A stretch of DNA of 64,000 nt from an uncultured Methanomassiliicoccales archaeon. GTDB lineage: Archaea > Thermoplasmatota > Thermoplasmata > Methanomassiliicoccales > UBA472. Positions 33,234 to 33,955 of this stretch are shown piece after piece. Below the pieces are notes generated by a model. That model was not told the origin of the DNA, did no database searches, and was given only the letters and a program-made list of their open reading frames with translations. The position numbers were made by a program, and so were the translations under genes. The stretch's first letter is position 1, and each line of letters opens with the position of its first letter. The stretch spans positions 400-64,399 of the forward strand of contig CAWDCQ010000019.1 in assembly GCA_963800775.1 (NCBI GenBank), given 5' to 3'.

Positions 33234-33512
33234 GCCCGGAGGCGGAATGCGGTTCCGGACAGGACAAGTTCAGATGGACGAGGCTCCTCTGCTCGATCCT
33301 GTTTCCTTACGTGGCTAAGTCCACGTCCGTCAATAGGAAGGAATCGGGTATTACCCGTTTCCAGACGCGAACCTGCTAAGCGGGATAGGTTCCGTTCAGG
33401 CTGAACGGTGACCTGCAAGCAGAAAGGAAAAAACGGCCGCCTGAGAAGAAGGTCATTTTGTGGAATGACCTTCGCAGGTCGTCGGAATCCGGTCCCTCCG
33501 AAATCTCCGGGC
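33234..33512 (+). ncRNA. Candidate structured RNA R1 (~279 nt), family unknown; strand not certain
   Basis: 5' GCCCGGAGGCGGAATGC .. 3' CGAAATCTCCGGGC gives an 8-bp terminal helix. There is no credible ORF on either strand. An internal perfect hairpin is GAAGGTCATT-ttgtgg-AATGACCTTC. TAATAC lies ~26 nt upstream and a TTTT run just downstream. Confidence 0.4.
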
Positions 33513-33662
33513 GAGTTTTCCAGTCGCCGCAATGAACTACTGGCGTGATGATTTTTCGCATCAGATCTGATTCGATGGACCAAACACTGTTTCGTTTACT
33601 TTTGCTGATGATATTGGCGAATCGAAGATTAGAAATAGTCGCGGCAGCCTAGTTATATCTAA

Positions 33663-33955
33663 GCCCGGGGGCGGAATGCATCTGGGGAAAGCAGGAAGGT
33701 ACCTGCATCGTTTGTGGACGATGCCCAAGGAATCTGTGTCTGTTCCGGCGAAAGCTGGGTCTGAGCGATCGTTCGCGGCCTGCAGGTCGTGAAAAAGACG
33801 CTTGGATTCGCCTATGACAAAAAGAGATCGACTTGACCGTCGAAATCTTTGTCTGGCGATACGGAGCGTCCAAGATTCAGGTAAGAGTCAATTCTGCAGA
33901 AATGCTCAACCTGACCTGAGGACGAAGTACCCAGTAGGCCACGCAATCCCCGGGC
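33663..33955 (+). ncRNA. Candidate structured RNA R2 (~293 nt), same termini as R1
   Basis: 5' GCCCGGGGGCGGAATGC .. 3' CGCAATCCCCGGGC. Position 7 (A to G) and its pairing partner (T to C) change together relative to R1. AAATAG lies ~27 nt upstream. No credible ORF. Confidence 0.4.

Follow-up and report, generated by a model that had tools for sequence, protein, structure and literature searches.

Tandem genes of a previously undescribed structured RNA family with bulge-helix-bulge-like ends upstream of a flavoenzyme gene in Methanomassiliicoccales

Two elements in the gap before an oxidase gene

The stretch of DNA described here, referred to as the window, comprises 64,000 nucleotides (nt) from an uncultured Methanomassiliicoccales archaeon (GenBank assembly GCA_963800775.1, contig CAWDCQ010000019.1, positions 400 to 64,399 of the forward strand). 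It has a G+C content of ~62% and holds an archaeal RNase P RNA at 55483-55774 and a gene for methyl-coenzyme M reductase operon protein C (MCR_C). Between the end of a 79-amino-acid (aa) open reading frame (ORF) at 33076 and the start of a flavin adenine dinucleotide (FAD) oxidase gene at 34107 lies a gap containing two elements, R1 (33234-33512) and R2 (33663-33955), both of which start with GCCCGG(A/G)GGCGGAATGC and end with CG(A/C)AATC(T/C)CCGGGC. A first-pass annotation, made from the letters of the window, had proposed the two elements as candidates for a new structured RNA family, and the coordinates and termini that it gave were borne out. The 17-nt 5′ end and the 14-nt 3′ end common to R1 and R2 each give these two exact matches and no other in the window, where only 0.82 matches to the 5′ 17-mer would be expected by chance even with three mismatches. 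The first 8 and last 8 nt pair into a terminal helix, which differs between R1 and R2 solely at position 7 (A-U in R1 and G-C in R2); this compensatory change, already pointed out in the annotation, proved to be one of many such pairs in the family. The perfect 10-bp hairpin described earlier in R1 is likewise present, at 33448-33457/33464-33473. In comparison with dinucleotide shuffles (n = 200 each), the predicted folds of R1 and R2 have z scores of -5.45 and -6.44, respectively, and 0/200 shuffles are equally stable in either case. The ORFs in the gap are short and unconserved, in agreement with the earlier statement that it holds no credible one.

The same gap in three relatives, whose FAD oxidases are 92%, 77%, and 64% identical to that of the window, contains both elements in the same order. 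A protein-guided scan via the oxidase gene, with one genome taken per species, provided 80 loci for further comparison. Iterated nhmmer searches started from R1 and from R2 reached an identical set of elements, in which intermediate sequences bridge the two types. For a covariance model, 21 R2-type sequences were then taken from three clades other than that of the window, and no R1-type sequence was included. The model yielded 67 full-length matches of about 270-310 nt among the 80 loci, each of them immediately upstream of the oxidase gene and on its strand. In the window, R2 is matched over model positions 1-302/302 with 134 bits (E=1e-43) and R1 over the same 1-302/302 with 36 bits (E=2.4e-10), and both matches reproduce the boundaries given by the first-pass annotation. 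A search with filters off at six loci added three genomes, in which weaker members occupy the same place. In total, 45 of the 80 species-level genomes carry the RNA upstream of the oxidase gene in one to three tandem copies, and the loci of more distant clades, including those labelled Methanomethylophilaceae, gave no model match.

Because all of these loci had been fetched through the oxidase gene, which introduces a sampling bias, metagenome contigs were also scanned with DNA motifs in an unbiased manner. The scan returned 36 contigs, 35 of which are true and contain 81 further model matches; the remaining one (L098), a high-GC bacterial contig, was rejected as a chance match. The oxidase gene follows downstream on the same strand in all 23 metagenome contigs that reach far enough, and no copies were found in the viral contigs searched. 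Altogether, the 45 species-level genomes and 35 metagenome contigs provide ~150 copies, and every array found lies upstream of the same FAD oxidase gene, an association with a single gene that is conserved throughout. The distance from the end of the last copy to the oxidase ATG is usually about 110-230 nt, with 366 nt at one locus. The collection of further copies, as recommended in the annotation, thus led to one syntenic locus and to no dispersed copies. The family appears to be confined to part of the order Methanomassiliicoccales, and the literature searches found no described RNA of such kind in this order.

The composition of the arrays varies. Arrays of three copies, first R2-like, then R1-like, and again R2-like, are present at L036, L038, L040, and L043 (about 1640-2825) and at L037, and genomes with a single copy carry either an R2-like copy (L013, L017, and L041) or an R1-like copy (L039, L042, and L045). 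These varied arrays indicate that copy number and type have changed repeatedly.

Fold, strand and transcription signals

Pairing was counted in the covariance-model alignment of 67 sequences. Standard pairs occupy 86.2% of the cells, compared to 69.5% in column shuffles, none of 500 of which reached the observed value; since this alignment is fitted to the model structure, the agreement is somewhat inflated. When the partner was moved by 1-3 columns as a control, 33-49% of the cells remained paired. Changes on both sides are found in 59 of the 65 base pairs, compensatory pairs occur in all 13 helices, and the covariation score is 0.423, compared to 0.179 in the shuffles. RNAalifold recovered the same major helices from the 67-sequence alignment, and MAFFT alignments of subgroups gave them too. 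A MAFFT alignment of 40 copies analysed with RNAalifold gave only 24 pairs, because variable regions misalign and one clade is shifted by one column, and it was replaced by the covariance-model alignment.

The fold begins with a closing stem, which consists of P1 (7-8 bp), a 4-bp helix H, P1c, and P2, and closes a four-way junction with P3, the branched domain P4, and P5 as its other arms. The apical hairpin of P3 shows double changes in seven of its eight pairs, with 95.8% of its cells paired. Conserved single-stranded elements are found next to P2, namely GAAA after its 5′ strand and GACGAAGUA ahead of its 3′ strand. In R2-type copies, P3 ends in a YUGNGG hexaloop and P5 in the palindromic loop UCUGCAGA; in R1-type copies, it is P5 that ends in YUGNGG. 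One or two hairpins of a copy bear this hexaloop. The hexaloop base N is the same among the paralogues of one genome, U in the clade of the window and A or C elsewhere; this uniformity may reflect gene conversion or a partner common to the paralogues. The annotation had described the interiors of R1 and R2 as largely different. They are indeed those of diverged paralogues, but they are homologous rather than unrelated and adopt one architecture in both elements. The interior sequence GCAGGTCGT that was listed as shared falls at non-equivalent positions in R1 and R2 and is not a feature of the family. Readings of the conserved terminal motif as a K-turn, a UAA/GAN motif, or a tRNA-like element were checked by hand against the sequences and rejected, since they either lack the G.A pairs or the T-loop that they require or clash with the covarying 4-bp helix.

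The strand of the RNA had been left undetermined in the annotation. It can be resolved to the plus strand from sequence signals, because the model matches all share the orientation of the oxidase gene, the paired columns contain 374 G.U cells compared to 110 A.C cells, and TATA boxes near -27 and, mostly, T-runs are found in this orientation. A TATA box at about -27 from the first G of P1 precedes all 79 copies with readable upstream sequence, including internal copies of the arrays, and a run of T4 or longer occurs within 20 nt past P1 in 48 of the 79. The boxes TAATAC of R1 and AAATAG of R2 noted earlier, about 27-29 nt upstream, and the TTTT after R1 are among these signals. Variants at an equal distance are CTTATACT in close relatives and TTTATAC, TTAAATA, and similar sequences elsewhere, and the boxes resemble those of the RNase P RNA (TTAATAG) and tRNA-Leu (TTAATAA) of the window. 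A separate TATA box (commonly GATTTAAAATA) precedes the ATG of the oxidase gene by about 60-75 nt at most of the loci examined and is followed by a short leader with a Shine-Dalgarno sequence. Each copy would therefore form its own transcription unit on the plus strand, starting at the first G of P1 and stopping at the T-run past P1. Because every readable copy has its own TATA box, most are followed by a T-run, and the promoter of the oxidase gene is separate, we infer that each copy is probably an independent RNA gene and not a leader of the oxidase mRNA. Such independent units would in turn produce stable trans-acting RNAs rather than the leader of a downstream mRNA.

Some further elements surround these signals. 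The hairpin GGGGC-GAAAA-GCCCC at 33986-34000, about 30 nt past R2, is conserved in the closest relatives and could serve as the terminator of R2, which has no T4 run in the window. The conserved promoter and leader region at 34021-34106 contains the near-palindrome CTAGCCATTGCACTAG, then TTTTAATAC, and then the conserved leader ACAATCTCGTTTATAT...GAGGG. In addition, the clade of the window and the L013/L017/L041 group have a CTAGT motif between the start of R2 and its TATA box. This motif and the elements of the oxidase promoter may form the site of a shared regulator.

These data bear directly on two other explanations of the gap. If the region coded for small proteins, or if R1 and R2 were diverged signal recognition particle (SRP) or RNase P RNAs, this might account for a 73-aa ORF that automatic gene calling placed within the R2 homologues of two relatives (L001 2576-2797 and L002 1594-1815) or for the size of ~290 nt and the terminal helix, respectively. 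However, a search of 5.8 billion proteins returned no homologue of this ORF, and in the window it is frameshifted and leaves only 38 aa, even though the protein encoded next to it is 92% identical; the annotated gene is likely an artefact. Searches with Rfam 15 gave no match at E<=10 in 33050-34110, which agrees with the absence of RNase P and SRP hallmarks reported in the annotation, and the single match in the whole window is the true RNase P RNA. In nine homologous loci, Rfam gave none at E<=1 save one unrelated weak match to sR10, a C/D-box small RNA; this sub-threshold match, at L031 1470-1518 in the spacer that separates the array from the oxidase gene (22.9 bits, E=0.14), is probably due to chance. 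ARAGORN found only tRNA-Leu (62213-62299) in the window and no tRNA-like gene at R1 or R2. Methanomassiliicoccales have been reported to possess ordinary SRP and RNase P RNAs (PMC4153887). Both versions of this explanation are therefore extremely improbable. The other explanation, which the annotation had named as its chief alternative, regards R1 and R2 as two miniature inverted-repeat transposable elements (MITEs), and the inverted repeats formed by their terminal 8 nt and the adjacency of two copies of similar size would fit it. It is contradicted by the presence of only two copies in 64 kb and by the single syntenic position shared by all copies found, in dozens of species and 35 independent metagenome contigs. 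Moreover, the printed flanks of 79 copies, read by eye with no dedicated search, show no evident target-site duplications and instead consist of a TATA promoter upstream and a T-rich tract downstream; internal helices carry compensatory changes, and viral contigs gave no matches. A MITE origin is hardly credible on these grounds. Collectively, the absence of Rfam matches, the syntenic copies, and the strong covariation in 13 helices support the proposal of a new structured RNA family, and sequence comparison confirms R1 and R2 as diverged paralogous plus-strand genes of one previously undescribed family of structured non-coding RNAs (ncRNAs).

Bulge-helix-bulge-like ends and the proposed fate of the transcript

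The base of the closing stem is the most conserved part of the family. On the 3′ strand, P1 is adjoined by a 3-nt A-rich bulge (AAN, GAA, or AUA), beyond which helix H is exactly 4 bp long and covaries (GCGG/CCGU, GCGA/UCGC, GCAG/CUGU, GCCG/CGGU, UCGG/CCGA, and GCUG/CAGU). On the 5′ strand, H is followed by a 2-3-nt A-rich bulge (AAU or AAA) and then by a further helix. Thus, the bulge lies 3′ of H on both strands, which is the handedness of the motif in pre-tRNAs. The motif called bulge-helix-bulge (BHB) is defined as a 4-bp helix between two 3-nt bulges on opposite strands, flanked by outer and inner helices (hBHBh′; PMC4090602). Among 91 distinct termini of the family, five have this canonical 3-4-3 arrangement (for example in L042, L045, and L039), and 52 combine a 3-nt 3′ bulge and a 4-bp H with a 5′ side that is 2-nt or 3x1; the other termini, those of both window copies among them, are variants. 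Minimum free energy folds of mini-constructs reproduce the bulge-H-bulge geometry.

From this BHB-like geometry, a mechanism is proposed in which the tRNA-splicing endonuclease (EndA) would cut inside the two bulges and the RNA ligase RtcB would then join the interior of ~265-270 nt into a stable circle, with predicted junctions ...CACGCAA|UGCAUCUGGGG for R2 and ...CCGAAA|UGCGGUUCC for R1. The mature RNA might act as a protein-binding scaffold or regulator, which is speculative. Taken by itself, cleavage by EndA in both bulges followed by ligation into a circle, as in pre-rRNA, is a tentative prediction from the geometry of the ends and falls short of an even chance. The more specific idea that the copies are free-standing 'exon-less intron' genes, that is, BHB units that release a circular RNA of ~265 nt and whose paralogues jointly form a ribonucleoprotein or a regulator tied to the flavoenzyme, is doubtful. 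The favoured guess at function, a trans-acting, protein-binding RNA with a functional tie to the oxidase gene, is likewise speculative.

Several observations weigh against processing at the ends and could be explained if the copies were stable linear RNAs that are never cut by EndA, with the double bulge as a module for protein binding or tertiary contacts and the closing stem as protection of the ends, in the manner of P1 in RNase P RNA; the other parts of the main explanation would still stand. The share of canonical 3-4-3 termini is low, an additional nucleotide faces the 5′ bulge in most copies, the 3′ bulge measures 1-3 nt in R2 copies of the L005/L019/L021 group, and H contains a mismatch in about 10 termini, including one in each copy of the window. 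The endonucleases of Euryarchaeota usually require strict motifs. The A-rich sequences of the bulges (AAU, AAA, and AAN) are themselves conserved, which an enzyme that recognizes only structure would not need, and the double bulge could be where a protein binds instead. In addition, the predicted ends of the transcript coincide with the ends of P1, so that a linear RNA would need no trimming. What a linear RNA does not explain is that the exact 4-bp spacing and the pre-tRNA handedness are kept while H covaries, and that textbook motifs occur in the distant lineages L042, L045, and L039. The linear form is thus possible, but it is also the less probable outcome, at about the same level of doubt as the exon-less intron.

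A quite unlikely reading treats the array as a cis-acting leader of the oxidase mRNA, in which tandem large riboswitch-like aptamers would respond to a metabolite and control read-through to the oxidase. The array is indeed always on the strand of the oxidase gene with its last copy at the short distance from the ATG described above, tandem aptamers are known in bacteria, and the T-run past P1 could be a conditional terminator. This reading is opposed by the TATA box near -27 of every readable copy, internal ones included, and by the conserved TATA box, short leader, and Shine-Dalgarno sequence of the oxidase gene downstream of the last copy, which are sequence signals present at most loci. 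Furthermore, no expression platform with alternative pairing was identified, the copy number varies from one to three, the interiors of the paralogues differ greatly, and the elements are larger than most known aptamers.

The whole is best explained by a new family of trans-acting RNA genes with proposed BHB-like excision and circularisation and a possible role linked to the flavoenzyme, for which we estimate a probability of roughly 0.6. Besides the features of the termini, some points speak against this explanation: transcription is predicted from sequence signals and circularisation from geometry, the tie between RNA and flavoenzyme has no mechanistic explanation, no partner protein or target RNA was identified in the present analysis, and no column of the alignment is >70% complementary to the hexaloop base N as its intramolecular partner.

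Comparisons, significance and neighbouring features

The ends of R1 and R2 resemble those of archaeal BHB substrates, namely pre-16S and pre-23S stems, tRNA introns, and crenarchaeal rRNA introns, in having a terminal helix, two bulges of about 3 nt, and a 4-bp spacing, and they share with circular pre-rRNA a large structured RNA interior. They differ in being free-standing genes, whose 'exons' of ~14 and ~9 nt have no evident function, and in that most copies of the family are not strict 3-4-3 and are known here from sequence alone. A second comparison is with OLE, GOLLD, ROOL, and raiA, which are lineage-restricted bacterial RNAs of several hundred nucleotides with conserved multi-helix junctions, strong covariation, and a function that could not be inferred from sequence; apart from the bacterial origin, the same description fits the R1/R2 family. 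The latter is archaeal, has no Rfam similarity to these RNAs, and forms tandem diverged paralogues at one fixed locus rather than occurring in phage or tRNA-array contexts. The 6S RNA (ssrS) upstream of bacterial ygfA is also a stable same-strand ncRNA whose position before the gene of a metabolic enzyme is conserved in many species. However, 6S RNA is a bacterial rod with a central bubble, whereas the R1/R2 family has a four-way junction, is archaeal, shows no evidence of RNA polymerase binding, and has predicted terminators of its own next to an oxidase gene with its own promoter. Archaeal RNase P RNA and SRP (7S) RNA are alike in their size of ~300 nt, a closing helix formed from both ends, and an A/T-rich TATA-like box, but R1 and R2 have no Rfam model match and lack the hallmark motifs.

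To our knowledge, large structured RNAs with strong covariation and a function that is not known are rare, and very few are known from archaea. The order in which this RNA occurs, Methanomassiliicoccales, comprises methylotrophic methanogens that depend on H2 and live in wetlands, in digesters, and in the guts of animals and humans. The compact four-way-junction fold with its conserved junctions and loops is suited to structural and biochemical study, and tandem paralogues have been maintained across genera. The unusually strict linkage to one flavoenzyme gene provides a concrete handle on function. If the ends are processed as proposed, the family would represent a dedicated gene for a circular ncRNA, a new class in archaea, and would extend the substrates of the splicing endonuclease past tRNA, rRNA, and a few mRNAs. 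Moreover, the RNA family flags spurious 'hypothetical protein' calls in Methanomassiliicoccales genomes. The features of the window are collected in Table 1.

Table 1. Coordinates of the RNA genes, their predicted parts and signals, and the adjacent genes in the window.
Feature	Position	Strand	Remark
R1 TATA-like box (CTAATACT)	33204-33211	+	centre about 27 nt before the first P1 base
R1, RNA gene, R1-type paralogue, 280 nt	33234-33513	+	covariance-model match
R1 P1 5′ strand (GCCCGGAG)	33234-33241	+	pairs with 33505-33512 (CUCCGGGC); P1 covaries in the family
R1 H strand GCGG	33242-33245	+	partner CCGA 33498-33501, one G.A mismatch
R1 bulges	5′ AAU 33246-33248; 3′ AAU 33502-33504	+	
R1 P5 hairpin, 10-bp stem, hexaloop UUGUGG	33448-33473	+	YUGNGG loop also in relatives
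R1 TTTT run, likely archaeal terminator	33516-33519	+	3 nt past the P1 helix
R2 TATA-like box (TAGAAATAG)	33630-33638	+	about 29 nt upstream
R2, RNA gene, R2-type paralogue, 294 nt	33663-33956	+	covariance-model match
R2 P1	5′ strand 33663-33670; 3′ strand 33948-33955	+	
R2 H strand GCGG	33671-33674	+	partner ACGC 33941-33944
R2 bulges	5′ AAU 33675-33677; 3′ AAU 33945-33947	+	
R2 P2 5′ strand UCUGGG	33681-33686	+	pairs with CCCAGA 33930-33936
R2 P2 conserved junction		+	GAAA follows the 5′ strand; conserved GACGAAGUACCC on the 3′ side
R2 P3b hairpin GCAUCGU-UUGUGG-ACGAUGC	33705-33724	+	best-covarying helix of the family
R2 P4 domain	33739-33865	+	closing helix 33739-33744/33860-33865
R2 P4 sub-helices	P4a 33745-33758; P4b 33759-33764/33803-33808	+	
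R2 P5 apical hairpin, palindromic loop UCUGCAGA	33884-33909	+	
FAD oxidase TATA-like box (TTTTAATAC)	34043-34051	+	about 60 nt before the ATG
FAD oxidase gene, GlcD / D-lactate dehydrogenase-like	34107-35690	+	Pfam FAD_binding_4, FAD-oxidase_C
79-aa coiled-coil ORF	32837-33076	+	frequent, non-obligatory upstream neighbour of the array

The closest solved structure to the FAD oxidase is D-lactate dehydrogenase 8jdb, and the relatives of the oxidase all come from Methanomassiliicoccales, the closest being 92% identical; a look-up of the exact protein sequence gave no record. We know of no RNA connection of GlcD or D-lactate-dehydrogenase-type flavoenzymes. On the other side of the array, the 79-aa ORF encodes a lysine/glutamate-rich coiled coil with no family assignment and is found in many, but not all, genomes; it was considered as an obligatory partner of the RNA and rejected because it is missing near many copies. 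Just upstream of it are an MCR_C homologue (30924-32132) and a DUF123 ORF (32352-32723), between which relatives carry a flavodoxin-like gene. Beyond the oxidase gene, a copper-transporting P-type ATPase on the minus strand (35971-38560) is spread over two ORFs (35971-37092 and 36944-38560) that overlap and are read in different frames. A single 832-aa gene occupies this site in L001, and the split in the window could be due to a frameshift, a pseudogene, or a sequencing error.

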